Assembly (NCBI GenBank): GCA_024679065.1
Contig: JAGIQG010000013.1
Location: 19,282,001-19,346,000, forward strand
Direction: 5' to 3'
From: Sphyrna mokarran
Taxonomy: Eukaryota
DNA: 64,000 nucleotides
Shown: piece after piece, positions 20,143 through 63,029 of the stretch
How positions within the stretch are numbered: position 1 is the stretch's first letter
Layout of the letters: each line of letters opens with the position of its first letter
Position numbers and translations under genes: made by a program
The notes under the pieces: model-generated
Told to the model about the DNA's origin: nothing
Seen by the model: the letters and a program-made list of their open reading frames with translations, nothing else
The model's database searches: none

Positions 20143-20206
20143 ATGTCATTGCTGGAAAATCAAGGCATCAGGCTCTTTATTTTACTGCGCATCCTTCTCA
20201 GCGCAG
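20143..20206 (+). CDS. IgSF V(J)-C1-TM receptor, leader exon (MSLLENQGIRLFILLRILLSA-G)
   Basis: Acceptor TCCTTTTCTATATTTTCAG at 20129/20130, ATG at 20143 and a hydrophobic signal-like core. The phase-1 donor CAG|GTGAGT matches the V exon. Confidence 0.85.
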
Positions 20207-20679
20207 GTGAGTTGGCTTACAATGTTTTCTTCCAACCCACGTGACAAAGTTACAAACATATTTTGACTTTTTTAATCCCGTTAAATAAGGTTTTATAACT
20301 GACTGCTTGAACCTGTTCAATTGTAATGGACACATTGGTCAAACTTCCTCCTACAAATGTCAATTAGCCCAATGCTCACGTCTAGCGTTTTCTGCTTTCA
20401 TTTCCAGGATGGTTTTCTTTTTATTTTGTAAATGCAGCATTACTTTATAGTACTAATTTCTTCAAAGGCAGGCTTGAGTGATACTCTTTAAATGTGAAAT
20501 TAACCCATGAACCCATTTCAGAAGTATAGATATTGTACAGTGCTTGAGAAGTTGGTATTTGTGTGCCAGAATGCCAAGTTATACACATTCCATAGATTAT
20601 TTAGTACAACTGATTTTTTTCATGTAGATAAAGTCCTGCTGTGGGGACTGGAAGCAGGGAGGCCACCCTGGCTTCATAG

Positions 20680-21010
20680 AATCATAGAATTGCTACAGTG
20701 TAGAAAAAGCCATTCAGCCCATCGAGTCTGCAATGATTTATTGACAGAGCATCTTACCTAAGCTTTCTCCCCATCTGTGTAACCCCACATTTCCCATCAT
20801 GTCCGCGTGGGTTTTCTCTCGGTGCTCTGGTTTCCTCCCACACTCCAAAGATGAGTGGATTAGGTTGATTGGCCGTACTAAATTACCCCTTACTGTCAAG
20901 GGGATTAGCAGGGTAAATACATGGAGTTACGGGGTGGGGCCTGAGTGGGGCCGTTGTCAGTACAGGCTTGATGGGCCAAATGGTGCCTTTCTGCACTGTA
21001 AAAATTCCAT
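20680..21010. mobile_element. Rearranged V-SINE type A pieces (- then +)
   Basis: Reversed tail at 20680-20790, then forward core and tail at 20795-21010. Confidence 0.65.
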
Positions 21011-22548
21011 GAACAAGAGGCCCCTGAGAAGATGCTGATGTGGTTTTCTTTCCAGCCAACCTTTTACACTACGTAGGGATCAAAATAACCACCAAAGTGA
21101 TGTTTTTTCATTTTTTGGACTTTCGCTGAGAGACCTCTGGGCCATAACAGGAGCTAGCAGGGACAGAACTGGGCTGGACAAAAAGCCTATCTCAGTGATC
21201 CAACACTATTCTCCAGCTGGAACAAAAAGAATGATGTGAAAAAACGGTCCTCCAGCACTCACTTCTTACTCTCCCTCATCCCCCCCCCACATTCATTTCC
21301 CGTACTAACTCATTGCATGACACTGCCATCTGCTTCCCATCGTCCCCCATATTCTCCACACCAACCTATGCCCCTCCATCCACTTCAAGCCATGACTGCT
21401 CATATTCCCCATGGCCCTATATATTCCTTATGAGAACTTAATACCAATTAATGCCAATCCATACACTCCACCATCTATTGATGAATCATTATTTTTTAAA
21501 GAACGCTCATTGATAAAAACCCATTCACTTAATTTAATGTTCTTTAATTCCTTATAAGAATAAGCATTTGTATTCACAATCACACTTCAAATACTTTATT
21601 AGCATTTGGGGCAGTCAATCAAACTATGAAATGGCAGGTACCCCACTGTGATAACAATAGGTTGTGAAATCCATCATGCAATACTCCACTCCAGCATTCA
21701 CACACTGTGATCTTGTGTTTATTTGTTAAGAGAGAGTTACAACTGTTAGGACTGAATTTTTACGCAGATGAAGAGGCTCTCCTTTCATGAAAACAGTGCG
21801 GAGGTCCACATCTTGTCTCTGAATCCCTATAATAGTAACCCTCAGGGTTATTTCAACAACTGGAAAAGACTGATTTTTTTCTCAAAACTGCAGGTAGTTT
21901 TTTTTCAAATGTTTAAAGGGCAGGAGATGTAAATACCTTGACAGCCCCGCCTTGATATTTCCCTTGCCAGTTCCAATGGGTTCATTCACTTTTTATGCAC
22001 GCTCGTATCTATCTTTCACAATCTCAAAGGGCATTTTGTTTCTCCCAAACGGGAATTGACCACTCCCAAAGGTGCCATGGAACCAAACTCAAAAATATAC
22101 CTTACCTCCACAAACTGGTATTTTCTCTTTCCTGAGAATTTTGATAAGTTTAGATCATCTCCTACATGGTTATTATGCAAAAGCCACATTTCTCACTCCT
22201 GCTAAACTAAAACAGTATCATGGATGTCCAAACTTTGACCCCATTGCAAAAATGCGTTCAGAGGCAAAGCTTGCAGATGGCACTATTTTCGAAAGGAGGG
22301 GGGTTGGGGAGTTGGGGGAGGAGGAGGTGGCCTCTCCAATGGGTGAAAATTCAGGCTTAACACGATGTGAGTCTCTGTCAGCAAACAAACGGGAAGTGTG
22401 TGAATACTGGAGTCAAGGGCTTATCATCGAAATGGGCTGACCCCAGATTTTAAACGGGTTCATTAGTGACATGTGAGCAGGATGACGGTTTGTCAATGTT
22501 GGATGTTCCAGATAAATTAATGACCTTGTGTTTTTTTCTCGCTCCAAG

Positions 22549-22914
22549 GCAAAAGCCAAAACTTGACAGTTTCCCAAATGCCGTCAGCGGTCAAGGCATT
22601 AAAAGGACAGACGGTGATAATAAACTGTCTCTACAGCAATGAAAACGGAGAACAGTTGAGGATAAAATGGGGGAAAAAGAACAGTACGCAAGCACTTTGT
22701 GATTATACCTACAATAAAAATGATGCAAAGTATACAATATGGCATTGTAAAGAACATACTAACATGACAGTGGATCTCTCAACAAACTCATCGTCTTTAA
22801 TAATCCACGACCTTCACTTAGAAGACTCCAGTATTTATTTCTGTCAGCTTTTTATTGAAATACCTCCACCTGCATTAATAGCAATTGGTAATGGCACACG
22901 CCTCACAGTGGAAG
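22549..22914 (+). CDS. IgSF receptor V-set exon with germline-joined J-like G strand (CD28/CD28H/NKp30-like V)
   Basis: Acceptor TTTTTTCTCGCTCCAAG|. Translates GKSQNLTVSQMP...VIINCLY...LRIKWG...ALCDY...WHCKE...SLIIHDLHLEDSSIYFCQLFIEIPPPALIAIGNGTRLTVE, with canonical Cys/Trp/DxxxYxC and GxGTxLTV. Donor G|GTGAGT, phase 1. Confidence 0.93.
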
Positions 22915-24209
22915 GTGAGTTTGTTGTAGTATCGCCCTGCAATGTAAACTACCAGTAAAATTGAACAGTAATAACTGTTCCTAAGACGGTGACACTTAAA
23001 CAAGTATTTCAGTGGCTACATATGCTTTAATGTTCTGAGGTCTTGAAAGAAGCTATGGAAAAGCAAATTCTTCCTTGTGTTTTTTTTCATTTGTTCAATG
23101 GCACCATTTTTAAACGTGTGGAAGAGAAGGCTGCTGGGAGTGAGAGATATCAATAGGAATGGGGAAAACAAATACAAGTCAACACGGTGACACGGTGGTT
23201 AGCATCAGGAAAAATGTTTTTCTCTGGGCTCCACAGGACCAACTTGGGCTGTAATTCGCCCTCCTTTCTTTGTTCTTTGTTCTCCAGAGGAGATTTTAGT
23301 GAATGTTAATAGAGGGAGGAAGGAAATATTTACAGTGTCTCCTTATCTCGTAAAGTGCCTCACATCCAATGGACACAGCAAGATCCCATAAAAAAAAAAT
23401 CAATAAGTTAATTAGTTTATGACGCTATTAGTTGAGGGAAAGATATTGGCTTTGGTATCAGAAGATTTATTACTCTTTTTCGCAAAGTACAATGAGATTT
23501 TCACATCCATCAAAGACAGATAGACAAGACCTTAGCTATACCTCTGACAGTACAATCTGCCCTCAGTACTGCATTGACATGTCAGACTAAAATCCAAATG
23601 ACCAACTCCTGGAGTGTGATTGGAATGTGTTTGGAATTCTGTCCCAAAGTTAATAATAGGAGTTAAGGATGGGGCTCTCAAAAATAGGAACTAATCATTT
23701 GTTGGATTTTCAAAATTCAAAAGCTCTATACTCAGGCAATATTTTTAATTCTATTTAAATGTATGTAATTTTATCACCTCAACAATATTTCAGTAATTTT
23801 CAATAATAAATTCCACAAGGGCAGAAAGCACACAGTCAAAAATCGACTCCAGAATCTTCAATAGATGGCAAAATGTTTCAAAAACAATTCTTTTCTAAAG
23901 CTTAGCAGATTTCTGATATCTGAAACATGAGATTCCGTTATCGACGTAAGGATCTAGGACCGTACTTACACACCGGGCTGGAAGAGGAAACTGGGCCATA
24001 TCTATCTCTGTTGTGGTTGCATAGTTTGCTGCTTCTTTGGTCATCAGTATTATCATGATTAGCAAATTTTTGACAGACATCCTTTCAATCAGACTCAAAC
24101 CAACTGTAGTTTCAATAAACCTACCACATAAGCTGTCCACATTAACTGCATCCTCCGTTGAAAGAAATAACAAAGGTGAATTCAAACTTTGACCAGGATT
24201 CAAAGTTAA

Positions 24210-24527: not shown

Positions 24528-25202
24528 GCTATCCTATTAACAACAATGGTGATGGTGATTTTGACAGAATTGATCATCCCTCTCTCTGAATGTGGCACAG
24601 TCCATATAGGATGTTCAAAGCTATTTTAGTAATCTGCTTGGGTTAGTTATTAAGTGGAGAGTTTCTCGGTGAATCCAATTCAATCCAAAGATTTTGCTCA
24701 GAGATAAATTATTTTCCATTCCCCACCCTCCACCATTCACTTTGTAACTTGTGTTTTAATTCCAACAAGTTAGGGATAATTTATCCAATTTTATCTATAA
24801 TTAAATCAAATATATTAAATCTCTTAAGCCTAAGATGTCTTTCAGAAGAGCTCGTGTAGAAACTTTGCAATCAATTTGCAGAGTTGGAATGCTTACCAAC
24901 ATTTTTCCTGAGTAACAACATTCAAACCAACTTCACGCACAACCTGGCTGGTCTGTTATTTTTTCTTATGAAGTAAGGAGACAGATTTGGAGACACTGAG
25001 ATGGTGGAGCAAGTGCCAATTTTAGCCCTTGATTTTGTGTTTCTTGCATTGGTTTCCACCTCAGTGCCTTCCTCCTAAATTGCTTCAAAGAAATTAGCAA
25101 ACTCAGTCACCCACCCTCAACAGCAACGTAGGAAATGGAACAGAGGCCTGGGAGGGAAGAGGAATCAGGAGTATTCAGACTAGGAGCAAACAGTAATCTT
25201 GA

Positions 25203-26790
25203 TATGGTGGCACAATGATTGCAGCAGGACATAGATAGGCTGGTAGCTTGGACAGACAGATGGCAGATGGAATTCAATTCTGATAAATGTGAGGTCATGC
25301 ATTTCGGGAGAAAGAATGTAGGGGGGAGGTATGTGATAAAGGGTAGACCTATTAAGAGTATAGAAACGCAGAGGGACCTGGGGGTGCAGGTGAACAAGTC
25401 TCTGAAGGTGGCAGAGCACGTGGAGAAGGTTGTGAAGAAAGCATATAGTATGTTAGCCTTTATAGGAAGGGGTATAGAGTACAAGAGCTGGCCTTAAATG
25501 TTGCAGCTGTATAAAACGTTGGTTAGACCTCATTTGGAACACTGCGTCCAGTTCTGGTCGCCCTACTACTGGAAGGACGTGGAGACTCTGGAGAGAGTGC
25601 AGAGGAGGTTTATCAGGATGCTGCCTGGTATGGAAGGTCTGAGTTATGAGGAGAGATTAGGCAAATTGGGACTGTTTTCTTTAGAAAGACGTAGACTTAG
25701 AGGAGATCTAATAGAGGTGTACAAGATTTTGAAGGGGATAGATAGAGTAAACAGGGTTAAGCTTTTTCCTAGGATGGACTCAAATAGCACGAGGGGTCAC
25801 GGGCTTAGGGTGAGGGGAGGTAAGGTATAATTTGGATGCTAGAGGGAGTTTTTTCACACAGAGGGTGGTGGGGGTATGGAATGCGCTGCCAAGTAAAGTG
25901 GTGGAGGCAGGTACTCTGGAGTTATTTAAGAAATACTCAGATGGGCACATGAACAGAATGGGAATGGAGGGGTATAGAAAACTGATTTAAAACAGAGATC
26001 ATGAGCCTTGGGAGTCCCTGGGAAGTGTGTAAATAGATGATGATGATATTGATGTAATTGTTTTTATCCTACACATGCTTTGGTCCACCTTGTTGTCTAA
26101 CGAGGGGCATACACGCGATGGGTCGTGAGAGGGCTGCTCTTGGATCTTTTTCGAGAGTATCCTACTGCTTCACGTTGTTAGTGTACGCTTGACCTGGACC
26201 TTCTGATGGGCAACACGACAGCTCAGGGACTATCGCTGTGCTGTGCAGATACATAGACTTGGGCCTGTGTCTGTAGGAGTTTGCGCATTCTCCCCATGCT
26301 TGCATGGGTTTTCTCCGGGAGCTCCGGTTTCCTCCCACATCCCAAAGATGTGCTCTGAGGCTAATTGGCAAAACAAATTCTCCCTAAATTGTCTCAAATT
26401 TGGTTTTTAAATCCATAGATCTATAAACATGGACAGGGATAGTGGGTAGAGATGGGAACATTGGGGTGGCGGCGCGGGCTCGTTGGGCCGAAGGGCCTGT
26501 TTCCCGTGCTGTTTTGTTCTTTGTTCTTTGTTCTTTGTTCACTGTGGCTTCACAGTGCCAGAGATCTGGATTCAACTCCCGCTGTAGGTCACTGTCTGTG
26601 TGGGGTGTACACGTTCTCCCCATGTCTGTGTGGGTTTCCTCTGGGTGCTCCCGCTTCCTCCCACATTCTGAAAGATGTGTTGGTTAGGTGCATTGACCTG
26701 AACAGACTGTGGCAACCAGGGAAATTTCACAAAAACTTCATTGGAGTGTGAATGTAAGCCTTACTTGTGACTAATAAGTAAACTTTACAT
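25203..26790 (+). mobile_element. V-SINE type B split by a CR1 insertion
   Basis: Head GGTGGCACAATGATT at about 25206-25220. The remainder ACTGTGGCTTCACAGTGCCAG... resumes at 26541. Confidence 0.7.
25220..26540 (+). mobile_element. 5'-truncated CR1 LINE with a long 3' UTR containing a V-SINE core and (TTCTTTG)n tail
   Basis: ORFs 25219-25497 and 25498-25830 encode the CR1 RT C-terminus ([39 protein letters not shown]). These run on into unique UTR, a SINE core and a tail. Confidence 0.8.
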
Positions 26791-27020: not shown

Positions 27021-27236
27021 AATAGGGGTCACAGCATGGGAGAATTTGATAAATGGCTGGGGAACTCAGATCAGCCTAATATAACGTTTTTAAAACGTCT
27101 GTGGTTAGCTTTTAAACTCAGTTCTCATCACAGACATAAACTCACAAACTAATGGTTGACAGAAAGAGGAGAAAAATGTGACTGGCTGCGTGAAGATTGG
27201 AAATGAAAGGTATAACTTGTTACGATTGATTTTCAG

Positions 27237-27542
27237 CTCCTCCCACTGTCCAGTTAAGAGCAGAGACTTTGCCTTACCCTCATGAAGGTATACAGTTAAT
27301 CTGCACCTCACTGGAGTTCTACCCTGAGAATATTCAAGTCTCCTGGTTTCAGAATGGACAGTTGATCTCCAATGGCACCAAGAATGGGAGACTCAATGTG
27401 AACAATGATGGTTCATTCTCCATTAAAAGCTTCCTGAATCTTTCTCTATTTGACTGGAATGAAGGCGAGAATTATTCCTGTCAAGTGAACCACTCAACAC
27501 TGTCTGCACCCATCACTGAAAGAATTTCTGCTTCGAATGAAG
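27237..27542 (+). CDS. IgSF receptor C1-set domain exon
   Basis: Acceptor TTGATTTTCAG|. Translates APPTVQL...LICTSLEFYPENIQVSWFQNG...NNDGSFSIKSFLNL...YSCQVNHSTL, with the C1 signatures CxxxxFYP, VxW, DGSF and YxCxVxH. Donor G|GTAAAA, phases 1-1. Confidence 0.93.
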
Positions 27543-28599
27543 GTAAAAATAACATCATGTCCTATTGTATAGATGGTATTAAATGTAATTCCTCATCAGT
27601 AAAACACATAAATGATGACTGACGCTTTAATTTCTAATCTGCCTCACTGGACAGCATTCTTCATCTGCTTTGTTTCCTGGTGTTGAGTGAGAGCCATGAT
27701 GTGTAGATGCCAGTGTTGGACTGGGGTAAACACAGTAAGAAGTCTCACAATACCAGATTAAAGTCCAACAGGTTTATCAGATAGCATGAACATTTGGAGT
27801 TTCAGGCTCCTTCTTCAGGTGAGTGAGGAGTTATGTTCACAAACAGGGCATATACAGACACAAATTCAATTTACAAGATAATGGTTGGAATGCGAGTCTT
27901 TACAGGTAATCAAGGCTTAGAAGTACAGACAACGTGAGTGGAGAGAGGGTTAAGCACAGGTTAAAAAGATGTGTATTGTCTCCAGCCAGGACAGTTAGAG
28001 AGATTTTGCAAGTTCAGGCAAGTCGTGGAGATTACAGATAGTGTGACATGAACGCAAGATCCCAGTTGAAGCCGTCCTCATGTGTGTGGAATTTGGCTAT
28101 CAGTTTCTGCTCAACAATTTTGTGTTGTTGTGTGTCGGAACATGGCAGACTATGTACTCTTCCTCAACCTCAAACAGACTATTGTCCATAGAAAACTATC
28201 CAGCCTTCAGGAGAAAAGCAACCACGACACCACACAACCCTGCCACAGCAACCTCTGCAAGATATGCCCGATCATCAACATGGATGCCATAATCTCACAT
28301 GAGAACACCATCCACCAGATACACAGTACCTACTCTCGCAACTTGGCCAAGGAAAGGATGTCCCGAGGCATGGTACATTGGGGAGAACATGCAGACACTA
28401 CGACAATGATGAAAGAACACCATTCGACAATCACCAGGCAAGTCTTCTTGTCGGGGAACATTTCAGGAGTCACAGGCATTCAGCTTCTGATTTTTAAGCA
28501 AGCACTCTCCAAGGTGGTCTTCATGACACATGACAATGCAGAATTGTGGAGTAGAAACTAATAGTCAAGTTCCATACACATTTGGACGGCCTCAACGAG

Positions 28600-29710
28600 G
28601 ATGCAGATGTGTGGAATAGAGGGTGATTTAGCTAATTGGATTAGAAATTGGCTGGCAGATAGAAGACAGAGGGTGGTGGTTGATGGGAGATATTCATCGT
28701 GGAGTTCGGTGACGAGTGTGTGCCTCAGGGGTCTGTTTTGGGGCCCCTGCTGTTTGTAATTTTTATAAATGATCTGGATGAGGGTATTGAGGGATGGATC
28801 AGTAAATTTGCAGATGATACTAAAGTTGGTGGTGTGGTAGATAGTGAAGAGGGGTGTTTTAGTTTACAGAGTGACTTGGACAAGTTGCAGAGCTGGGCCG
28901 AGAGGTGGCAAATGGAGTTTAATGTGGAAAAGTGTGAGGTAATGCACTGTGGCAGGAACAATAAATGTGTAGAGTATAGGGCTAATGGTAGGGCTCTTAA
29001 TAGTGTTGAGGAACAGAAGGATCTTGGTGTATGTGTCAATAGATCCCTGAAAGTAGGCAGTCAAGTGGATAAAGTTGTTAAGAAGGCTTATGGAGTCTTA
29101 GCTGTTATTGGTAGGGGGATTGAATTTAGGAGCCGCAGCATCATGTTGCAGCTGTACAAAACTCTAGTGCGGCCGCACTTGGAGTATTGTGTGCAGTTCT
29201 GGTCGCCACATTATAAGAAAGATGTGGAGGCATTGGAGAGGGTACAGAGGAGGTTTACCAGGATGTTGCCTGGTATGGAGGGCAGGTCCTATGAAGAGAG
29301 GTTGAAGGATTTGAGGTTGTTTTCGTTAGAAAGGAGGCGGCTAAGAGGGGATCTTATTGAAGCATATAAGATGATTAGAGGTTTAGATAGGGTGGACAGT
29401 GATAGCCTTTTTCCTAGGATGGAGAAAGCTAGCACGAGGGGACACAGCTTTAAATTAAGGGGTATGAGTTATAGGACGGATATCAGAGGTAGGTTCTTTA
29501 CTCAAAGAGTGATTAGGGAGTGGAATGCCCTGCCTGCAGCTGTTGTAGATGCGCCAAGTTTGGTGGCGTTCAAGAGGTTAGTTGATAAGTATATGGATGA
29601 GAAGGGAATGGTTTAGTTAGGAGGGGCATTGCTTTTTATTTTGGTCGGCACAACATCGAAGGCCGAAGGGCCTGTTCTGTGCTGTATTGTTCTATGTTCT
29701 ATGTTCTATG
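28600..29710 (+). mobile_element. Young 5'-truncated CR1 (same family as 9725-12070) nested in the Penelope element
   Basis: ORF 28699-29616 is almost identical to the C-terminal part of ORF 9818-12133. (TTCTATG)n tail. Confidence 0.95.
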
Positions 29711-33025: not shown

Positions 33026-33135
33026 ATGTAAAGGATAACAAAAGTTTTATGTGGGCAATGGTACTAAGACTCATGATCTTTGCTACGGCAACACTGATTG
33101 CGATGGCAGCCTTTATTTTATATTTCAGGTATCAT
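33026..33135 (+). CDS. IgSF receptor transmembrane exon (DVKDNKSFMWAMVLRLMIFATATLIAMAAFILYFRYH)
   Basis: Acceptor CTCTTCACAG| in phase 1, hydrophobic helix with an Arg near the outer leaflet, donor CAT|GTAAGT in phase 0. An alternative donor CAG|GTATCA lies at 33128/33129. Confidence 0.88.
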
Positions 33136-34974: not shown

Positions 34975-35046
34975 GATACCGATGATGAATTTGAACCAAC
35001 TGCACCAAGTTATAAAAGAACAACAGTTACAAGCAAAACTCACTAG
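34975..35046 (+). CDS. IgSF receptor cytoplasmic and terminal exon (DTDDEFEPTAPSYKRTTVTSKTH*)
   Basis: Strong acceptor TTTTTATCATTTCTTGTTCCCAG|. Open in phase 0 to TAG at 35044-35046, with AATAAA downstream. Confidence 0.75.
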   Translation, partial: DTDDEFEPTAPSYKRTTVTSKTH

Positions 35047-52612: not shown

Positions 52613-52700
52613 TTATTGGTCTGCACAGGAGATAAGTACTGAAGTTTGTGCCATTTCCTTGGGTTGTCCATCATGGTTCAGAGAAACTGCACGCTGGCCT
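52613..52700 (-). CDS. BBX: HMG-box transcription factor BBX, last coding exon
   Basis: (R)GQRAVSLNHDGQPKEMAQTSVLISCADQ* matches the vertebrate BBX C-terminus (...DGQPKEM...VLISCADQ). Acceptor TTTTTCTGCAG|, phase 2. Confidence 0.92.
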
Positions 52701-55217
52701 CTGCAGAAAAACAAAAACAACAATAAGAATCAGTGCTACTCACACTCACACACACACCAACAAGTTACCTTCACTATCCCAAGTTTTCCTGGGGACCTTC
52801 ATAATGTAACAGTGCATGAACTGACAAGTTTTCTGTGTTCAAATAAGATAAATTTGAATGTGCATTAAAATATTGTAAATAGCAGGTTTACTTTGCACCC
52901 AAACTATACCACTAGATGGCATAGCAAATAAAAGCTGTACGAGCACAATTAGGTGTGAAATTAGAATCTGCTTGTTAAATTTTAGACTAGTTTCAATAAA
53001 TCTACTATGCATGCATTCTGCCTCCATTTTTAATCATGTATTATAGAAATCTGACTCACTGTGCCTGCAACAACTCTCTGAAGAAGCTCTGGAAGTCCTA
53101 CTCAGGACTTTCACTATGGCCCTGTAAAAGTTTCCTTTTTAAGGATATATCCTGTTCCCTTTTGAAAGTTAAGGTTACATCTGTTTCCACTACTCCTTCA
53201 GGTTGCAGGTTGTAAGATCTCTCTCAGTTGGATTTTCTCACTGGAGGGCAGGTTTAATTCCGAGACCCAAACCTGATGAGGAACAGGAAGCAGCTGCTAC
53301 TTTCACCGAGTTAGGGATCTTGCTTAAGGGGTGGGCCTGTCTTTTAATAAGAGATGGAAATGGAGGCAGCTCAGTCAAAAGACGGACCATGTTAAACTGA
53401 AAGCTGGAAGGGAGGCCAAGAATCTAGGACACGGTAGGCTGGTGATGCCTATTTTAAAAATTGATGACTTTTTATATAATGAGGCCTGACCTCTCTGCAA
53501 TCTGCAAGCCTCTTCAATTCCAATTCAAACCACTTCTCATATTATTAGCTGATCCTGTCCCCAGCTCTATTGAGCTGCTTTGAATTCCAACAGCTGTAAT
53601 GTTTGACAACCTTGCTAGAAATTAGAAATTTATTAGGAACAGGGTCTCAGGAGTTCATGTCAATGCAAATACCTCAGTAATAGGATTGGGCCTGTTCCAT
53701 AGCTTGCTCCTTCCTTTGCCCTCAAGAAAATGGTGGAAGGCAGAAGTGGAGGCAAACATTCCAATTACTCTCCTCAACGGCCATTTTATCTATTGTCCTA
53801 CTCATTGGGACGGGGAAAATATGGTCTGGTGTCAAAACATTTCTTCTAATCTTCGCTTTGTTGCCAATCATCTTAAATCCATGCCCCACATTTACTTTCT
53901 CTCTTGCCAATGAAAATGGTTTCTTCTCATTACTCCCTCATAGCTTCCCCACCTCAACAATTAATTTTCTCCGTAACTTTCACTGTTCTCAGGAAAACAA
54001 TTCCAGCTTCTCCAGTCTTTCCAAGTAGATCATCATTATATAATCCTTTTCTATTTAAACAGCAAAATGTCAGAAGTAGAGAAGTACAGACAAGAAATAA
54101 TGACAGAAGTAGTCGATAGGAAATGCTCACAGATGCAAGATTTTTAATATATTGTAGAGATGCATTGGTAAGTTTTATGAACTTACCCCTAGGATCAAAG
54201 AATGGAGGCCCATTTTATTGGGTTCCTATCTCCTTTATATCCACCTTGTATTTGTTGGATTTCAGGTGGGTGTGGGTGAGATAGGCAGGGATGATCTTGG
54301 CCTCTTGCTTTGTTTTCTTTGGACCATTGAAACCTGATGCTGCGCCCTTCCCATGGATTCCACCAACAGGAGGGTCAGAAGAGTGCTACTACGCACAAGC
54401 TAAAAATTAGGAGCTGAATTTTTCCGTCCCAGTATTGAGTTAACACGTATCTGGAGGACCAAACAGGAGGTGGGTAGGGCCCATAATTTGACAATTACCA
54501 GGCCATTCTTCCTGGCTGCCATTTTCTTTGTGTCGGGAGAAGTGATGGATTATGATGGCAATGGGGTGGGGAGGGGTATGGGGTGAGGGTGAAGGCTGGA
54601 GGACTTAAAACCCATGGCTAGCTCTGAGCCCATCTCTTCAAGACCAAAGGTGGGCCTTTGAACCTGCCTGCCTCTGCAGCTGCCTCAGAATCTATTTAGG
54701 AAGTCGAAACTCTGACTCCAACCAGGTCACATTTGAATGGGCCAACATTCTGAAGTCTGGAATATAACTTTGGGAAATGCTCCAATTCGATGTTCCTGTT
54801 GCTGACAGGAATACTTGGCACTTCAATATTTCTCAGCAATATTAGGATGTATTTAGAACTATTTCCTGTGGAGAAATTACCAGCCCTCCTGTGCATTTTG
54901 CACAGATTATTTCTGTTCAACACCAGTCACAGTGAGAGGCTGGAAAAGGCATTCCAGATAGTATAAACAAGGTAACCAAAGGAACAGTATTAAATATATT
55001 GCAATACATAGACATTTTAAAAAATACTGATAGGAACATTACAGTGATGAACTAATTTTATTTCATTGAATGGTTTTATTGTAGAATACAACTTTTATCC
55101 AATATTGGTAAGATCTTCGAAATTTGTCAACAATTTCTCTTCCTATAGTTAAAACAAACACTCTGCAGTTAAGACTGATTATTTTACACTGTGCCAATAA
55201 CTTATTAGTCATCTCAC

Positions 55218-55425
55218 CTATGTGCATTCTCCATGGCTGCAACTTCTGCCAAAGCAGCTAAACTGAAAAACGCTGGGATAGCAGATGTTGTTTGCACTTC
55301 TGGCGAAATACTGCATGCCTGTTCAGTTTCTGAACGACTGTAGTTGACTCCACTAACTAAAGTGTTTGTCTTTTGTGGCTGCTTTTTCTTTTCCTGTTTA
55401 CATGGCATCTTCTCCTTGGTCAGAT
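55218..55425 (-). CDS. BBX: BBX coding exon
   Basis: (D)LTKEKMPCK...AIPAFFSLAALAEVAAMENAHR contains the BBX AFFSLAALAEVAAMEN motif. AG/GT boundaries, phases 1 and 2. Confidence 0.92.
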
Positions 55426-55449
55426 CTGCAGTAATTTATAAGCAGTTAG

Positions 55450-55760
55450 AATAGAATCCATACAGTGCAAAAGGAGGCTATTTGGCCCATCAATCCTGCA
55501 CCAACAACAATCCCACCCACAACTCATCCCCATAATCCCACGTATTTACCCTGCTAATCCCCCTGACACTAAGGGGCAATTTAGCACGAACAATCAACAT
55601 AGCCCGCACATTTTTGAACTGTGGGAGGAAACCGGAACACCTGGAGGAAAGCCATGCAGACACGGGGAGAACATGAAAACTCCACACAGAAGACACCAGA
55701 GGCTGGAATTGAACCTGGGTCCCTGGTGCTGTGAGACAGCAGTGCTAACCACTGTGCCAT
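55450..55760 (-). mobile_element. V-SINE, tail type A
   Basis: Full head, core and tail. Confidence 0.85.
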
Positions 55761-56669
55761 CTATAATTCTGAGATAGGGAATTTAGAAAAGACAAAAAAA
55801 TACATAATAATGCCAGCACATTAAAAAATGAATTACTCTCATTGTTTTAGTAATTACTTCTCTCTGTACATTCCCCTTTGACAGACAGTAGATAGCTAAC
55901 TTGGTTTAAGGTCTCTTCCAATGGCAGTGTGCAAGCAACCATCGATACTGACTACAGAAAATACATGCAAGGAGACAGGGTGATTTAGGTACTCATTACT
56001 TATTCTTGTGTACAATGGCTTCACCTCTCACTATTTCCTACACAAGTGGGATCAAGAACTTATTATAGAACAAACACTTAACATAAACCTTCACCCAAGT
56101 TGGATGAATAGTTACATCAAAAAGTATTGTGGCACTGTCTTAAAGTTATTAGGAATGGGCAAAGAGAGGGTGCACCTATGGTGCCGTTCTAACTTCCACT
56201 TTCTGATGCCACTGCCACTGAATTCTGGAGTAGGGTTCAACTTTAAGCATACATTTTATAAAACCCATTTCAGAGTCTCTTGAGTACTTTATAAACTTAA
56301 AAGTGTTGATTTAAATGCATTGAGAAGCAAGTGCGTTTCTTTGGTATTTCAATATGTTAAAAAATCATAAGCACACATACGCAAAGCTTGCCTCTGTGCA
56401 TGACATTAGGTGCAGTACTGCAGACGGCATGGTACTGAATTGGCAATTTGTGGGCTAGCACAAGATCAAATGACTGTGAGAAATATCAGATTGTTGCAAT
56501 AACCCCAATGCTTCATTAATATCCTTCAGGGAAGGAAATCTGTTGCCAGTATTCAATGGTATATACATAACTCTGGTCCACACAATTTAAATGACTTAAG
56601 CCATTCATTTGAATGAACAATCTCTAGGGTAAATTGGGATAGGCAAGAAATGCACCCCTCATTGATATT

Positions 56670-56945
56670 GGGGCAACACAGTGGTTAGCACTGCTGTCTT
56701 ACAGCATCAGGAGCCTGGGTTCAATTCCTGGTTTGGATCACTGTCTGTGTGGAGTTTGCATCTTCCCCCTCCCCCGTGTCTGTGTGGGTTTCCTCTGGGT
56801 GCTCCAATTTCCTTTCCTACAATCTGAAAGACGTACTAGTTAGACGTACTAGTCCGAACAGGTGCCAGACTGTGACGACCCAGGGGAGATTCACAGTAAC
56901 GTTATTGCAGTGTTAATGAAAGCCTTACTTGTGATTAATAAATAA
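56670..56945 (+). mobile_element. V-SINE, tail type B
   Basis: Full head, core and tail. Confidence 0.8.
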
Positions 56946-57357
56946 TCTTTATATCGACAAAAACAAGAAAAAAAAGGATTTGCAGATCATTACTTTAGCT
57001 ACTGATAGGAGATCGACAGCCAAGTTATAATCACAGCTTAAATGTAATGCATGTGTAATACATTCCTGCGTACAAACATACAAAGAAATTCAAAAATTAA
57101 GTTGAATGCCTCATAGGAAACTAAAATGGAAATTGATATTAATGCTTTAATACCATCAAAAATTCATTCAGTATGGAGGTTGTACCATTAAAAAAAAATA
57201 GCAAGTGCATTCATTACAAATCGAAACCCTATTCAACTATTTACCCGAAGTCCATCCTCTGAGAATATTATCTTCCACTTTTAAAAGAATGCACACACAT
57301 GGTTATCTGCATTTTATGACATAAGTAATAACTGGGCTCTCAGCTCCAGCAACATCT

Positions 57358-57485
57358 GGGGCAGGATTTTCTGACTGTGTTCGCCCAAAGATTGTAAAAT
57401 CCTGCCCGAGGTCAAGGACCTTTGAATGGTCCTGTCCTGCTTGTCACAATTCCCGTGGAGGGCGGGATGGGAGGATTCCATTCTT
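57358..57485. mobile_element. Short MITE-like element
   Basis: GGGGCAGGATTTT...AAAATCCTGCCC internal hairpin. Related to 14830-14968. Confidence 0.45.
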
Positions 57486-58175
57486 TCAGTCTGCATACAC
57501 ACAACGAAATGAGAAAATCAGGAAGTTCTTTATGTGTTGTACTGTTCTTTCACAAGCCTTAGCAACTCATTGATCAAGTTGGGATTCAAGTACATGAAAG
57601 ACATACCGCTATGGTACTTACCCACTAGTTAACTCCCAAATATATTGGAGGAGGTTAGGGCACATTCCAATGTAAGTGAATTTTTAATGGTCTTCTAAGA
57701 TTTAAATACTGCCAAGCAACTTAAAAATTTAACTTTACCAGTGTGGAATTCCATTCATTTGAATTTTGTTATTAGAGTTTTTAAGAAATATTTTTAATAT
57801 TTTTCTTCTATTACACTCTCTCAATCCCATCATTTTCTCCCTCTCTTTATTTTCTGTACATGAATTCACATTACATTCAATATTTTCAATTTATGCCTCC
57901 TGGCTTACTGTGGACTTCAATGAGGATTTTCCTATCTGGTTGGTTGAAGAGACTAGAGCCACTGGAGCAGTTGATGTTCCAGAATAAAAGTGGGCACCGT
58001 CTGAACTTAAGTACTGACTAGTTTTCTCTACTCCCCTGTTGAGGGCACAGCCCAGGAAATGACCTCCAAATACCATGAACTGCCACCCAAAAACACTGCA
58101 TAAAATCGGTGGGTAGTGAACAGCGAGCGCTGTTGTTTTGCCACTGACTGCAAAGTCTGGTCACCTTACACCTAC

Positions 58176-58364
58176 CTCCTGCAGGTGACAGACGGCCATC
58201 AGCTGTTCGTATTAAATGTGTTATTTTTGTTTTTCTGGCCTTGCGCTTTTGGCTGCCAACGAGGGGTTCTTGTGTCACGGCTGTTAGTGGACTGCTTGGA
58301 ACTGATGGGGCATGATCCACCTTCTCCGTTTGTTCCTCAGAGTTCGTGTCTTGTGGTACTATGG
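58176..58364 (-). CDS. BBX: BBX coding exon
   Basis: IVPQDTNSEEQTEKVDHAP...EPLVGSQKRKARKTKITHLIRTADGRLSPAG matches BBX. Acceptor TTCTTATATTTCAG|, donor G|GTAGGT, phases 1-1. Confidence 0.92.
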
Positions 58365-59279
58365 CTGAAATATAAGAAACTATTAAGTTAACTTAATGAC
58401 AAGCATTAAACAATAGCATGCTGTGAGTTCATTTAGAGAATATTGTAAAAATCTATTGACTTATTTCCTGTGCTGATACTTATGCCTCCTTAATTGATCT
58501 AACTCTGTCAATTTGCTATTATTGTGAAAGTTCTCTACATTGCTGATAATTTTTACTTGGTATCTCCAATTGAAATAAATAGTTTGATCTAAAAGGTACA
58601 CAATGTGTACACATTAGAATTCAGTTCTTTAACTAAATGTTTTTGAAGCAAATTTGTATCATTCAATTCAATCATTATAAAACATTAATGCTAGGAATTT
58701 GTAGAACTTCTTTTTTCAAGCTTCCAGGCTTATATTAAAATCCTTCTAAATTAATTACGACACACATGCCAGAAACAAAGGATTACCACAGCCTCAAATA
58801 TATAGGATGAGATGGGAATCCACAGATAGTGTGTACAATACCAGTGACCTTGACACAACTGATTTAGAAAAGCACACAGCCACTGCATGTTTAGAACTTC
58901 TTGTACTTTAACTAAAGGATTTTCAGCACCAGATTTAAAAACAGAAGCATATTGGATAATGCAATTGAATCTGACACTCAGCGGTATAAGTACATTCCAA
59001 ATTTCACTAAGATATAGTCAGCAGGTGATCACTTTTATATTTAGGGCTTTACCCAGTGTGAGACTGAGTTGCTGAATAGTTAAATGGGCAGTTATTCAAT
59101 GATTTGCAATAATGCTTTGTGGTAGATTAATGATGTATTTACTGGATTCAAAGGAATACTAGAAATCATTAAATGGTTATCCTAACTGGAGGCTCTGAGA
59201 TGATTAAGGACATTAACTTTCACTCTTTTAGAAATGCACTGTTTCTCTTTGCAGTGGAATCTGCATACTTAAATTCTAC

Positions 59280-59333
59280 CCATAGCGCAGAAGCTAATGG
59301 ATTTTAAACAGCAAATGTTTTTATAATGGATTC
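59280..59333 (-). CDS. BBX: Candidate small BBX exon (GIHYKNICCLKSISFCAM)
   Basis: 54-nt open phase 1-1 segment with TTTCTCCAATGTCAG| and G|GTAGAA, located where a short segment is expected. No clear sequence similarity. Confidence 0.25.
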
Positions 59334-59893
59334 CTGACATTGGAGAAAGTTGACATTTTATTTCATTTTAGAATGGTCTAATTTGGCCCTTATAATCCAT
59401 ATAGGTTTAGGCATCAAATCTCTTAGTATCAATTAGCGGTCAATTAGACTAGGATACTTTTATTGCAGCCATTCATTTAATGGCTGTTCCATTTGGAAGT
59501 TAGTATAACTTATTTCATAGTTATTGTAATTTATGATAATAGTAATAAAAAGAGATTAACCGAATATGATTACCGTAGATTTAATTATATCCAACAGACT
59601 GCAAGGCCACAATATGCAACCTAACAATCTCACTGGAGCACTTAGGACATTATAGACAAATTTACATGCACGCTTTTTTGTATGTGTAACATCCTTTGGG
59701 AACAATTAAAATATTTTATATGCTTATTTCTATCCATGTGTCATTCTATGAACATCTGCAGTTACAGCTCTTATGCACAAGCTAAGCAATGCAATATTTT
59801 CAAAAGGATTCAAGAGCTGAGGCAACTTCTTCCCTTATCCCACTCTCTCCATCAGAGATTCTACTAAATAGCAAAATTAACCTTTATTGGTAC

Positions 59894-59965
59894 CTTTTTC
59901 AGTTAAATGATGTGTGTTCTTTTGGTGTTTACACTTGCTGACTATTTTCTGAGATGGAGATGATC
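59894..59965 (-). CDS. BBX: BBX coding exon
   Basis: (G)SSPSQKIVSKCKHQKNTHHLTEK resembles BBX KIVSKYKHKKEK..PEK. Acceptor TATATTTTTTAG|, donor G|GTACCA, phases 1-1. Confidence 0.8.
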
Positions 59966-60209
59966 CTAAAAAATATAAATAAAAATATATAAAAAAAGAA
60001 AATGTTGGCTTTAACCAAATGGGTTCCTAATGCCAACAGCATAAGGTTATCCCACAATCCGATCTAAATAATGGAAAATGAAAGTATTGATACGCCTTAA
60101 GTCTGGTCCACTGGTCATTTTCAGTGCAAGGACAATATACGTGCAAACTTCCACATTAGAATTAACAGAGGGGGATTATTTGTAAGAACAGTGACAATGG
60201 GCAGGAGGG

Positions 60210-60530
60210 GTGGGAGACATGGTGGCACAATGGTTAGCACTATTGCCTCACAGTGCCAGGGACCCGGGTTCAATTCCAGCCTTGGGTGACTGCCTGTGTG
60301 GAGTCTGCACGTTATCCCTGTGTATGCATGGGTGTCTTCCAGGTGCTCTGGTTTCCTCCCACAGTCCCAAAGTGTGCAGGTTAGATGGACTGGCCATGCT
60401 GAATTGCCCCTTAGCATCAGGGGTGTTAGCAAGATAAATACATGGGATAAATACAATAGGACCTAAGTCGGATTGTGTTCAGTGCAGATTCTACGGGCCA
60501 AGCAGTCTCCTTCTGCACTGTAGAGGCTTT
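60210..60530 (+). mobile_element. V-SINE, tail type A
   Basis: Full head, core and tail. Confidence 0.85.
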
Positions 60531-60635
60531 ACGATTATAACTACCCATTTATTAGACTGAATAGCTCTCAAAAGAGAGGTACAAAATCAAATGCTCCGAT
60601 TACTTCTGACATAAAAGTGAGTCCTCCAGTGCTAC

Positions 60636-60784
60636 CTTTATCACTTTTTTGTTGCTCAGTGGATCCACTCCTGTTCTTTTTCTTTTTCCTTGTCACTGTT
60701 GTGTTCTTGCGGTCAAAAGTTACTGGACTATATTGTGGAAGGCTGTTGAACTTCTTTGCAAATTCCTGGTCTAGATTCCCTAAT
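60636..60784 (-). CDS. BBX: BBX coding exon
   Basis: LGNLDQEFAKKFNSLPQYSPVTFDRKNTTVTRKKKK...SDK contains the BBX KFNSLPQYSPVTFDRK motif. Phases 2 and 1. Confidence 0.93.
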
Positions 60785-61767
60785 CTGGAAGGCAAAGAAG
60801 ATAGTTCTTAAACACATTATTTTCATGTTCTTAATTATCCACAAGCTTTCCAGGTTTCTCCTTCAGTTCCAGGTTAAGCAGGATCTTTGTTGGACAGAGT
60901 AGCCAGCACAGACAGACTGCAGAAGACTGGTGTTTCTAATGTGTTGGTACAGACTCGATGGGCCGAAGGGCCTCATCTGCGCTGTATAATCCGATGAAAC
61001 TGCAAAAGTTGGGAATTTGATGCAAGTTGGAATTTGGTATAGAGGGAGAAGGAGGTGTTTTTTTTTTGCCCCCAGTGTAGTGGTTAATGAAAGCTACTGT
61101 GTATAGTTTTACATTTCGACTTTGACTAGTATTTTAGTGCTTAGTGCAAGGAAGTGTGCAGAAAAAGAGGAATACCTACAAACAAACTGAAAAGTAGATA
61201 GAAATGATCCAGAATAGCTTTGTGTATCTAGACTGCAATATGTAGGAGTTAATGGGTACAGAGACTAAGATGGAGCAGATATCTCTGTCTGAGGCGCACT
61301 GTTATTCAGCTGAAATGCAATTGGTGATGCTTGGACACACAGGAGCAGTAACTGGTTAATTTCTTCAAGTCTTAGATCACAGAGAGATGCAGTTTCATAA
61401 ACGGGGTTGGTGTGACTGATGACATACAATGTAAGAATTACATGTTGTAATTGTGATTTATAACTAGAAAAATGTATATGAAAACTAATAATGCTCATGT
61501 GCAAAAAGTACAAAACCAAGGATTAGAGAGGTTATTCACAGAAGTGAGAAATGTAAGCCGATAAATTCCTGAGGGTTAATTAGCAGTCAACTGCCAATCT
61601 GTGGCAAATTACCTGCGCTTCAATTGTAAAGAGCTTGTCTTATCCAATTCCTGACTCAGACTAGGAGTGGTGTGTCCACAGCTCCAATAGCAAAGTGTAA
61701 AAGGAGCAGAGTGAAAGGAATACACCCTCTTTTTACAGTACTGGGTGATCCTGCGTGGGGAGGGAAT

Positions 61768-61788
61768 GGGGGGGGGGGGGGGGGGGGG
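61768..61788. repeat. Poly-G tract (G21) within a G-rich patch
   Basis: Directly visible homopolymer flanked by further G runs. Confidence 0.9.
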
Positions 61789-62167
61789 TCGGGGGTAATA
61801 GGTATTTTATTGAAGGCAGTATAGGGGATCTCCTGGAGGTTGGGAGTTGGGGGTGCAGCTGTACCACATAATGCTCTGTCTGGATGTCTAATATAGTTAT
61901 CTTGGAGTTAGAAGTGATTTTCTTTTTCTTCTAATTCATTCAGAGTAACTATGAAGCTAAAACTGGCAGAACCATTCAAAGTTAGCAATTTAAATTGTTT
62001 TGTCAGATGGTCCCTGCCCAGTGCAATTATCCAGGGGAAACTAGCTCTTCTGGACAACTGGTGGATAACCCTTATAATGGGAACTCCCAAAAGAGATTCC
62101 CCAGCACATCACTGGGGTATTCCCCCAAATGTGACATTAGGAAGCCCATGACATTATGGTCCAGTAA

Positions 62168-62445
62168 GGGCAGCATGGTGGCACAGTGGTTAACACTGCT
62201 GCCTCACAGCACCAGATATTCAGGTTCAATTCTGGCCTTGGGTGACCATCTCTGTGGATTTTGCGCATTCTTCTGGTATGTGCGTAGGTTTCCTCTGGGT
62301 GCTCTGGTTTCCTCCTGCAATGCTTATTAGGTTGATTGGCCATGCTAAATTGTCCCTTAGTGTCAGGGAGATTAGTAGAGTAAATACATGGGATTGTTCT
62401 CGAAGCAGGTTTGATGACCCGAATGACCTCCTTCTGCACTGTAGT
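62168..62445 (+). mobile_element. V-SINE, tail type A
   Basis: Full head, core and tail. Confidence 0.85.
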
Positions 62446-62890
62446 GATTATATAATAAAGCACTGGCAGAATGTTTCCATCCCTAAACAAAACCTCGATG
62501 TTGTTCAATTATGGAGGAAAACAAATGTTTGTGCATACATTTATATATTCTTGATGGCTGAACGTTCTGAAAAATGAAGTACTCTTTAATAGCCGACATT
62601 TGATCCACACAGTTTAAATATCACATAATATGATGCTATCAGTCACAGTTAAAAGCATACAGACAGAAAGATTGATGGTGTCATGGGTATAATCCTTTCC
62701 TTCAAGGTCCACTGAAAATCAGATGTCAGTGATAAGTCCATTTTATAATCATACAGTTTGCAAAACAGACACAAAAGATGGTTCGGCACACAAATCCATT
62801 AGCTAATCACGACTCAGTGGCAGACAAGCTGCCAGATTAAATTGCCAACGTAAATGGCGAGGAAAGCAGGAAAAGCCACTGATTACTTAC

Positions 62891-63029
62891 CCAAGAGCAG
62901 ATTCGTCCTTTTGTTTCAATTTCTTCAACTTCTTGGTTCCACTGGTCCCAACGTTTGAAAATGGCCAATCTTCTTCTTTCCAACAGCCCTCATGGTCAGA
63001 TGACCCCCCCTTTCCTGAGGCTTTCTTAC
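62891..63029 (-). CDS. BBX: BBX coding exon (upstream exons lie beyond the window)
   Basis: (G)KKASGKGGSSDHEGCWKEEDWPFSNVGTSGTKKLKKLKQKDESALG matches BBX SSDHEGCW.EE.W.FS..GTSG.KK. Donor GG|GTAAGT in phase 2 joins the 60784 exon. Confidence 0.9.

Follow-up and report, generated by a model that had tools for sequence, protein, structure and literature searches.

A predicted paired-receptor triad with CD28-type V domains and added C1 domains beside an HHLA2-like gene in a shark

The stretch of Sphyrna mokarran DNA analysed here (the window; 64,000 nucleotides of contig JAGIQG010000013.1, hereafter C335) contains a complete immunoglobulin-superfamily gene, gene A, on the forward strand and the 3' end of BBX on the reverse strand. 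Gene A consists of leader, V, C1, transmembrane (TM) and tail exons, joined at AG/GT splice sites with intron phases 1-1-1-0 into an open frame of 305 amino acids. The features are as follows, in window coordinates unless a contig is given.

20143-20206, + strand: gene A leader exon, ATG at 20143, in line with orthologue leaders
22549-22914, + strand: gene A joined-VJ V exon, with EIPPP loop, GxG G strand and extra Cys pair C50/C66 (domain numbering)
27237-27542, + strand: gene A C1 exon (Pfam C1-set), within a conversion tract of about 27212-27550
33026-33135, + strand: gene A TM exon, Arg near the outer end of the helix, in line with orthologues
34975-35046, + strand: gene A last exon (stop at 35046), 23-residue tail without a conserved Tyr motif
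52613..63029, - strand: BBX 3' exons, the gene running on to the right of the window
near 62890-63029, 60630-60760, 58180-58390 and 55220-55425, - strand: BBX exons
52613-52699, - strand: BBX last coding exon
C335:19379171-19379476, - strand, right of the window: BBX HMG-box exon, Pfam E 6.6e-14

Both Ig domains of gene A were recognised by Pfam (V-set E 6.5e-14, C1-set E 2.5e-18), and the V exon also matched the ICOS V-set_2 profile at 31.1 bits (cut-off 28). The last exon at 34975 was preferred because the same DDE(F/Y)E motif occurs in five orthologue models; beyond this acidic motif the reading frame is unlike that of the orthologues. An alternative tail exon at window position 34221 was rejected, as the orthologues use the 34975 splice. 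A previous sequence-only reading of the window had stated that the receptor gene is not CD47 and that it converges on BBX. Our analysis agrees on both points: gene A has a C1 domain, a single TM helix and no V-set_CD47 match, and the exon models place the two stop codons about 17.6 kb apart. Non-repeat open frames in this gap gave no Pfam match over the cut-off. The minus-strand gene was named BBX because of its HMG box, its synteny and C-terminal motifs like those of BBX.

Two paralogues of gene A, B and C, lie to the left of the window, forming a row of three related receptor genes. Each V exon is accompanied by a single C1 exon, a TM exon and a tail.

C335:19.305 Mb: V exon of gene A
C335:19.266 Mb: V exon of gene B
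C335:19.172 Mb: V exon of gene C

The V domain of A shares 29% identity with that of B and 50% with that of C. A B7-family gene of V-C-V layout, HHLA2-like, lies 164 kb left of the start of gene A, with about 17 kb between the end of gene C and its own start. The order BBX, A, B, C, HHLA2-like, CIP2A, DZIP3 is collinear with human 3q13, CIP2A and DZIP3 keeping their human order and orientation, and A, B and C occupy the slot of CD47 and IFT57 in human. Human HHLA2 is built as IgV1-IgC-IgV2-TM and groups with B7-H4 and B7-H3 (PMC10173190). The shark gene has this architecture, its TM exon being a candidate, together with a B7 group III likeness and the CIP2A/DZIP3/BBX synteny. Among solved structures its V1 domain is nearest B7-H4 and B7-H3; an HHLA2 cluster ranked 19th of 30 at 0.91 in an Atlas search, and no HHLA2 chain was among the 60 structure matches listed. 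A scan of 143 of the 154 non-repeat frames of at least 85 amino acids between HHLA2 and BBX (7 frames that span a locus border were set aside, as were 4 known Ig exons) found only the C1 domain of gene C over the cut-off. Between CIP2A and the HHLA2-like gene, a motif scan found no myosin motifs.

The sequence-only reading had further proposed looking to the left of the window for CD47, IFT57, HHLA2 and tandem paralogues, and had suggested that the receptor may sit beside its ligand, HHLA2-like or CD47. The paralogues are there as B and C, with opposite predicted signalling that is new to that reading, and linkage to an HHLA2-like gene, followed by CIP2A and DZIP3, was seen in this one genome, that of Sphyrna mokarran. 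IFT57 was found on another scaffold, of 150 Mb, beside a dynein heavy chain gene, and the 140 kb around it held no Ig-like V exon. CD47 was not found in the interval and had no convincing match in the genome: profile PF04549 matched none of 6 candidates, its control being silent as well, and PF08204 gave 8 weak matches, none of them on C335, of which the 4 inspected resembled generic Ig exons. With IFT57 elsewhere and CD47 not found, the CD47/SIRP option is unsupported. The proposal of a receptor beside its ligand is supported as to linkage with the HHLA2-like gene and lacks support as to CD47, and HHLA2 binding gains weak support from a complex model described below.

Orthologues of gene A are carried by six other sharks and by batoids, and A, B and C lie together on one chromosome-length contig in Carcharodon and in Scyliorhinus. 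Gene A is therefore old, ruling out the recent translocation that the sequence-only reading had allowed for. The TM Arg was present in five of eight A-type database proteins; two of the others are models without a TM exon and one is aberrant. The tail of gene B carries a YxN motif (YVNI) and an ITIM-like motif, both seen again in Carcharodon, Scyliorhinus and Rhincodon. The tail of gene C carries an ITIM, VIYSLL, found in 4/4 complete shark C-type orthologues, with related motifs in skate and chimaera. C-type relatives extend to chimaera and, among bony vertebrates, to bony fish, lungfish, a caecilian and turtles. Database proteins from these groups include XP_007893987 (Callorhinchus), XP_015196712 (gar), XP_043927033 (lungfish), XP_030060973 (caecilian) and XP_037763572 (green turtle). 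Bony vertebrates had only C-type members among the matches listed, and 9 of the 11 listed matches of bony-vertebrate type bear a terminal Y-S-x-(L/V/I) motif. A and C are thus linked, related paralogues with opposite motifs (TM Arg and ITIM) conserved across sharks, as paired receptors are. We predict from these motifs that A, B and C form a paired-receptor triad kept across sharks, with one activating (A), one co-stimulatory (B) and one inhibitory (C) member. The family, with its relatives in fish, lungfish, caecilian and turtles, is apparently undescribed. Automatic NCBI names of the orthologues are inconsistent (SIRP-alpha-like for several, Ig light chain, MHC class I, CEACAM1, HFE), and our literature searches found no published description of the locus or family; the 2012 B7-evolution, 2019 primordial-immune-complex, 2021 shark NCR3 and 2019 PRARP papers lay outside this comparison, limiting the claim of novelty.

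The C1 exons of A and C share 97% DNA identity over 339 bp. Within species these exons are 93-100% identical, being homogenised in 4/4 species representing four shark lineages, whereas the A and C V domains are 48-56% identical. An A+C clade in the V tree was rejected (p-AU 1.1e-44), and between species the V domain of C (58-76% identity) evolves faster than that of A (75-90%). At the sequence level, the C1 exons of A and C thus evolve in concert by gene conversion and the V domains stay distinct. Paired receptors are expected to share or homogenise the ligand-binding domain, and conversion in published cases is mainly of this kind (PMC3210942). Here conversion between a predicted activating gene and a predicted inhibitory one is confined to the C1 exon. 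This is the reverse of the usual pattern, and it predicts a conserved interaction through C1.

The CD28 family is defined by a single IgV-TM-cytoplasmic layout, the CDR3 motif YxC..(E)IP(PP) and a Tyr motif (Quiniou et al. 2024, PMC11599192). The loops of A (EIPPP..GNG), C (EIPPP..GKG) and B (SVPPP) fit the CDR3 motif with or without GxG; P105 and P106 are invariant, and the extra Cys pair is at least 90% conserved, across 37 sequences. The layout differs, A, B, C and their orthologues having V plus C1, and the conserved cytoplasmic Tyr motif is missing from gene A, with YVNI in B and VIYSLL in C. For the modelled V domain of gene A (pLDDT 91.4), the best 10 Foldseek matches were all CTLA-4. 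The evidence from fold is thin, however: in VIA-align the highest score went to TCR V domains (Z 15.7), and PD-1 (14.7) and CD28 (14.5) were near-tied. Sequence searches of solved structures favoured antibody V domains, antibodies swamping the results, and the best C1 match was UrIg2, a rank owed largely to its several C1 domains. The Atlas search with the receptor returned generic V-C1 clusters only. None of the fold-search matches listed was NKp30, SIRP or CD47, which excludes none of the three.

CD28H-family loci are the closest paralogues that this genome has outside the cluster (29-35% identity); V trees, with long branches, leave the placement of the cluster relative to this family unsettled. 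CD28H, HL1, HL2 and CD28X look-alikes sit elsewhere in the genome, among them a motif-matched CD28H copy on contig C838. Gene A was rejected as the TMIGD2/CD28H orthologue: its neighbours are BBX, HHLA2-like, CIP2A and DZIP3, not fsd1/stap2, and the CD28H match is on C838. By eye, the extra Cys pair is present in amniote CD28H, the group to which the proven HHLA2 receptor belongs, and missing in shark CD28H. Being probably ancestral, the pair is no evidence of a tie between the cluster and TMIGD2. A second V-C1 gene adjoins a B7-like V exon on contig C760. There are 35 B7-like V matches in the genome, and not one of them shares a contig with any of the four V-only CD28H-family loci.

The DNA itself establishes how the genes are built, that they form a cluster collinear with CIP2A and DZIP3, that their signalling motifs are conserved and that the C1 exons of A and C evolve in concert. 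Building on this, we lean slightly towards reading A, B and C as a leukocyte paired set that recognises a ligand of the B7 family, for which the neighbouring HHLA2 is the likely candidate. Gene A would quite probably activate, its TM Arg pairing with the Asp in a dimer of CD3-zeta or of FcR-gamma. The genome contains a CD3-zeta-like and an FcR-gamma-like TM exon, both named by likeness. Our FcR-gamma-like candidate is at odds with a report of no FcR-gamma in sharks (PMC4016189). Gene B would co-stimulate or modulate through its YxN (GRB2-type) and ITIM-like motifs, and gene C, with good confidence, would inhibit via its ITIM. The PPP loop would engage the IgV face of a B7 protein as in CD28/CTLA-4; some B7 is a reasonably probable partner, HHLA2 itself a tentative one. 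It is possible, if somewhat doubtful, that the common C1 keeps A and C interchangeable at a dimer or partner surface, their V domains differing in affinity or ligand.

A complex model of the gene A V domain with HHLA2-like V1 passed weakly, scoring 0.58 against 0.29 for the best control, with runs agreeing in at least 94% of contacts and a partner pLDDT of at least 89. Among 78 solved pairs 51 attained the pass mark, as did 2 of 108 mismatched pairs, and passes at or below 0.60 comprise just 5 of the 78 solved pairs but all 4 passing mismatches. The pass may be an echo of complexes already solved, CTLA-4/B7 or PD-1/PD-L1, and the modelling does not tell B7 members apart.

Linkage is not proof of binding, because Ig-superfamily genes cluster by descent. 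CD28, CTLA-4 and human TMIGD2 are all unlinked to their ligands. Human TMIGD2 lies on chromosome 19 (PMC10173190). Because A and C differ so much in their V domains, a common ligand is not assured either, and the separate CD28H on C838 could be the HHLA2 receptor. The triad might then be real and its adjacency to HHLA2 inherited from an old Ig-superfamily neighbourhood, with other B7 or butyrophilin, self or microbial ligands and with CD28H reading HHLA2. We judge this unlikely on balance, if a serious contender: the motif-matched CD28H, the many candidate ligands among 35 B7-like V matches, the low identity of the B and C V domains to that of A (29% and 50%) and the faster evolution of C's V domain speak for it, but the tight linkage of C to the HHLA2-like gene (about 17 kb), the weak complex pass and the second V-C1 gene beside a B7-like V exon on C760 do not.

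It is improbable that the genes encode non-rearranging antigen-receptor-like chains in the style of UrIg/PRARP, pairing via C1, for example as an A-C heterodimer of an adaptor-binding and an ITIM chain whose interface C1 homogenisation preserves. The joined VJ plus C1 layout, UrIg2 as best C1 structure match, TCR V domains at the top of the VIA list and homogenisation of C1, not V, in 4/4 species would all suit such chains. Yet in its PPP loop and second Cys pair the V domain is of CD28 type, UrIg2 owes its rank largely to having several C1 domains, bony vertebrates have only C-type members among the matches listed, and the locus is neither the MHC nor the AgR complex of PMC12227049. The CD28-type loop and Cys pair, the CD28H-family loci as nearest paralogues and a neighbourhood lacking MHC genes also make it very improbable that gene A belongs to the NKp30/NCR3 family, carries C1 as an extra domain and binds B7-H6, although NKp30 likewise has a VJ domain, a TM Arg and a short tail. 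Orthology to SIRPs linked to their ligand CD47 is the most far-fetched reading: several orthologues are auto-named SIRP-alpha-like, and V plus C1 combined with either an ITIM or a charged TM helix is reminiscent of SIRP-alpha and -beta, but those names are inconsistent, the V domain is CD28-type, each gene has one C1 in place of the SIRP V-C1-C1 layout, and CD47 is not in the interval and has no convincing genome match.

HHLA2 is a human checkpoint ligand with a KIR as inhibitory receptor. A search of sharks turned up no KIR homologue (PMC4016189), which raises the question of what restrains HHLA2 signalling outside mammals; under our preferred reading of a B7-directed paired set, three expressible, named candidates stand beside the HHLA2-like ligand gene. 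The VJ-C1 branch also forms a link between the CD28 family and those non-rearranging antigen-receptor-like genes that figure in discussions of how adaptive immunity arose; a 2024 survey (PMC11599192) would have excluded it because of its single-V definition. A broader and, taken jointly, unlikely scenario is that a gnathostome-wide VJ-C1 branch of CD28-related receptors arose beside HHLA2 and still reads it. Both the activating and the inhibitory member would persist in sharks and rays, with a co-stimulatory third in sharks; the inhibitory member would persist in bony fish, lungfish, a caecilian and turtles; mammals would have lost the branch from the slot now filled by CD47/IFT57 and re-recruited KIR3DL3 as inhibitory HHLA2 receptor. 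Continuous conversion of C1, not of the binding domain, would keep A and C compatible.

Among known systems, CD28H/TMIGD2, CD28HL1-3 and CD28X share with the cluster a V domain with the YxC..EIP(PP) loop and GxG (PMC11599192); YVNI of gene B fits the CD28H tail consensus, and human TMIGD2 binds the IgV1 domain of HHLA2, whose like adjoins the cluster here. All nine members described are however V-TM-tail (PMC11599192), whereas the cluster genes are V-C1, form a triad and include in gene A a TM Arg without a tail motif. BBX, HHLA2, DZIP3 and three cluster-family accessions are absent from the nine supplements of PMC11599192, indicating that the locus is new relative to that survey. The CD28/CTLA-4/ICOS cluster resembles A, B and C in its three tandem genes, opposed signals, PPP loop, second V Cys pair and the CTLA-4 Foldseek matches; the shark genes add C1, an adaptor-coupled member and a candidate ligand next door. 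NKp30/NCR3 shares the joined VJ exon but has a single VJ domain, and UrIg and PRARP share the non-rearranging VJ-C1 layout, a J-like strand lying inside the V exon of gene A. Relative to UrIg, UrIg2, PRARP and NCR3, the cluster differs in its CD28-type V and its position outside the MHC and AgR complex. These two are the UrIg loci (PMC12227049). Siglec-11/16, KLRC, PIR and CD300A/C have in common with A and C linked activating and inhibitory genes, opposite orientation and post-speciation conversion. A further parallel is human HHLA2 itself, one B7 ligand with opposed receptors, TMIGD2 (activating) and KIR3DL3 (inhibitory) (PMC10173190). In human, however, neither receptor is related to the other or linked to HHLA2, whereas in this shark paralogues beside the ligand gene would serve.

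Gene A, the receptor gene of the window, has an intact reading frame with a product of 305 aa. BBX lies on the opposite strand, confirming the convergent arrangement proposed in the sequence-only reading. The exons, in window positions, are as follows:

20143-20206, + strand, gene A leader exon
22549-22914, + strand, gene A V exon (Pfam V-set match)
27237-27542, + strand, gene A C1 exon (Pfam C1-set match)
33026-33135, + strand, gene A transmembrane (TM) exon
34975-35046, + strand, gene A last exon
52613-52699, - strand, BBX last coding exon

The BBX HMG box lies right of the window, and the nearest orthologue of gene A is that of Mustelus (90% in V). Intergenic and intronic DNA of the window is filled by many LINE fragments (including 8743-9210, 25183-25827, 28590-29615 and 37753-38260) and SINEs. 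An open 791-aa LINE reverse-transcriptase frame occupies 9821-12193 (-); from its motifs we take the LINE to be CR1/L2-like.

The scaffold, C335, is 85 Mb of a 2.77 Gb genome. We examined 400 kb left and 60 kb right of the window, finding these features (C335 positions):

19268486 to 19259757, - strand, gene B (V, C1, neutral TM, tail)
19173707 to 19154652, - strand, gene C (V, C1, neutral TM, tail)
19137928, - strand, leader of a B7-family (HHLA2-like) gene
19135460-819, - strand, HHLA2-like first IgV
19133507-833, - strand, HHLA2-like IgC
19128143-538, - strand, HHLA2-like second IgV
19113844, - strand, HHLA2-like candidate TM exon, best of 3 candidates
19052593-19088305, + strand, CIP2A (11/11 candidates at this place)
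18894527-5207, - strand, DZIP3 HEPN exon (E 1.9e-31)

The locus is a three-gene cluster of CD28-related V-C1 paired receptors. The four marker genes, DZIP3 among them, match human 3q13 in order and strand. The shark HHLA2-BBX interval is occupied by the three receptors, with A in the position and orientation of CD47. BBX, CD47, IFT57, HHLA2, MYH15 and KIAA1524/CIP2A are the human contents given in the available text of PMC8254995. The first V domain of the HHLA2-like gene has B7-H4 (E 2.3e-18) and B7-H3 as its closest solved structures; a V-C-V layout and membership of one group with B7x and B7-H3 are what characterises HHLA2 in print (PMC10173190, text available in part). CD47 was not found in the HHLA2-BBX interval and had no convincing match elsewhere in the genome searches, and IFT57 is on another contig (C771, 150 Mb). 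The suggestion that the receptor lies beside its ligand gained real support for HHLA2 and none for CD47; annotation left of the window yielded the HHLA2-like gene and tandem paralogues B and C but neither CD47 nor IFT57. On C771, IFT57 and a dynein heavy chain gene are arranged head to head (G000:C771:51253216-51306993, L063-L068), a ciliary-gene pairing unlike the human IFT57 position. Transposase-like frames, presumably SPIN/hAT from their likeness, lie in the DZIP3-CIP2A region (G000:C335:19041396-19042738; L035, L034). Two more C1 exons and a B7-like V exon occur together about 16 Mb off on the same scaffold (G000:C335:34984070-35101672).

The V domain of gene A is of the CD28 type: it carries YxC..EIPPP..GxG along with a joined J-like strand and an extra Cys pair, and exceeds the Pfam cut-off for ICOS V-set. 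Across 37 aligned relatives two prolines never vary, and conservation of the extra cysteines is 90% or higher. The modelled domain (pLDDT 91.4) retrieved only CTLA-4 in the Foldseek top 10 (E 1e-10 to 6e-10), with one TCR at 7e-10. In VIA-align the best matches were TCR V domains (Z 15.7, rmsd 2.4, 111 aligned), followed closely by PD-1 (14.7) and CD28 (14.5), so fold alone is not decisive. The extra Cys pair is kept in amniote CD28H and missing in shark CD28H in the alignment of PMC11599192, as far as its available text goes. As the pair also occurs in CD28, CTLA-4 and ICOS, it is probably ancestral. Gene B orthologues of Carcharodon, Scyliorhinus and Rhincodon (P0008-P0012) are without the first canonical V cysteine, and that of Scyliorhinus is without the second also; the Sphyrna gene B V exon (L004:4055-4471) has both. 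The gene B C1 has a conserved CC pair which could form an inter-chain bond.

Five further genome matches to the gene A V domain were found. Matched by eye against the PMC11599192 tables, four fit by loop motif CD28H (contig C838), CD28HL2 and CD28HL1 (both on contig C1) and CD28X (contig C2). Identity of gene A as CD28H was rejected because the CD28H-fitting locus sits separately on C838. In its available text, that survey admits V-TM-tail proteins only, and a term search of all nine of its supplements returned none of BBX, HHLA2, DZIP3 or three accessions of the cluster's family. The cluster is also unmentioned in the available text of PMC12227049 (including a term search), PMC10751288 and PMC13262535. 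No description appeared in the literature searched, outside which lie most subscription journals, and a prior mention is possible.

The three genes carry opposed signalling motifs. In gene A an Arg sits close to the outer end of the TM helix, a feature shared by 5/8 A-type database proteins (the remainder being two models without the TM exon and one aberrant); receptors with a TM Arg pair with zeta or gamma chains. Its tail is short and, as the frame past an acidic motif varies among species, is without a conserved motif. The TM of gene C is neutral, and its tail contains the ITIM VIYSLL, which 4/4 complete shark orthologues share unchanged; ITIMs recruit SHP phosphatases. Gene B combines a neutral TM with a tail bearing YVNI, SNYSFI and a terminal Tyr motif, which recur in Carcharodon, Scyliorhinus and Rhincodon, and YxN is the CD28H tail consensus (PMC11599192, available text). 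C335 also carries a CD3-zeta-like TM exon, 1.9 Mb away from the cluster (G000:C335:17364945-17365031, L115), and an FcR-gamma-like one lies on another contig (C446:11045007-11045090, L116); a 2014 paper (PMC4016189) reports, in its available text, that a gamma chain was not found in sharks. Past its acidic motif, the last exon of gene A (window 34975-35097) is shifted in frame relative to Heterodontus and Pristiophorus. Read in the alternative frame, it resembles the longer tail of those two, so there is either a small indel in the Sphyrna lineage or an assembly error.

Orthologues of A, B and C are assigned to contigs of one and the same length in Carcharodon (118,536,060) and likewise in Scyliorhinus canicula (211,674,833), as are those of A and C in Mustelus; some linked orthologues carry consecutive accessions. 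Batoids have both A-type and C-type genes. A C-type protein was searched against cluster representatives, and 19 of the best 150 matches, picked as short or single-stretch, were viewed. Full-length relatives were found among them, ten of which are named here: Callorhinchus (a transcript-type RefSeq record), Hemitrygon, sea turtles, lungfish, caecilian, bowfin, gar, loach, Carassius and a mormyrid. These ten include neither mammals nor birds. Most viewed relatives keep the PPP loop, extra cysteines and C1, and 9/11 bony-vertebrate-type matches viewed have a terminal Y-S-x-(L/V/I) motif. Their automatic database names are inconsistent.

The genome holds 35 B7-like V matches, which fall into about 18 sites spread over 11 contigs. 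By our own arithmetic a random point falls within 170 kb of such a site about 0.2% of the time, though Ig genes are not randomly placed. A B7-like V lies close by in each of the two V-C1 loci that have a PPP loop, namely the present cluster and contig C760 (43 kb), while the contigs carrying the four V-only CD28H-family loci hold none of the 35. Modelling A-V with the HHLA2-like V1 scored 0.58 against 0.29 for the best control, with contacts agreeing at 94% or more and partner pLDDT of at least 89, a weak support. The mark for such models was reached by 51/78 solved and 2/108 mismatched pairs; at this level, of 0.60 or under, fell only 5/78 solved pairs but all 4 passing mismatches. The score may simply reflect solved CD28-family/B7 complexes, and it is unable to single out HHLA2. 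We judge the chance that at least one of A, B and C binds HHLA2 to be somewhat short of even. On C760 itself, 38 kb separate a second V(ISPPP, GxG)-C1 gene and a B7-like IgV exon (G000:C760:36897135-36902095, 36940046-36955460; L101, L102, L106, L107). Behind the IgV, in the same orientation, come a candidate TM exon (36946635) and a NACHT exon of 586 aa (Pfam E 7e-24). The arrangement could represent a membrane NLR of IgV-TM-NACHT type, or else another pair of receptor and B7 neighbours.

Genes A and C, on opposite strands, are separated by 139 kb. Over 339 bp their C1 exons show 97% identity, differing at 9 places in 101 codons, 3 of them silent, with the likeness stopping about 25 bases into the upstream and about 9 into the downstream intron; the V exons share 66% identity. 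Comparing A with C inside each of four species gave identities of 93-100% for C1 and 48-56% for V; comparing orthologues gave 79-89% for C1 and 58-90% for V. In topology tests on 11 rows, omitting species without both genes, C1 rejected an orthologue clade (p-AU 5.7e-7) and V a within-species one (p-AU 1.1e-44). Among 150 candidates scored, only A and C were near-identical C1 copies. A and C may share a common C1 interface; the same pattern could instead result from neutral conversion acting on the last alignable island. Homogenisation of C1 differs from published paired receptors, where, in the available text of PMC3210942, it is mainly the ligand-binding domain that is homogenised. A head-to-head arrangement is published for SIGLEC11/16 (PMC5701461, available text).
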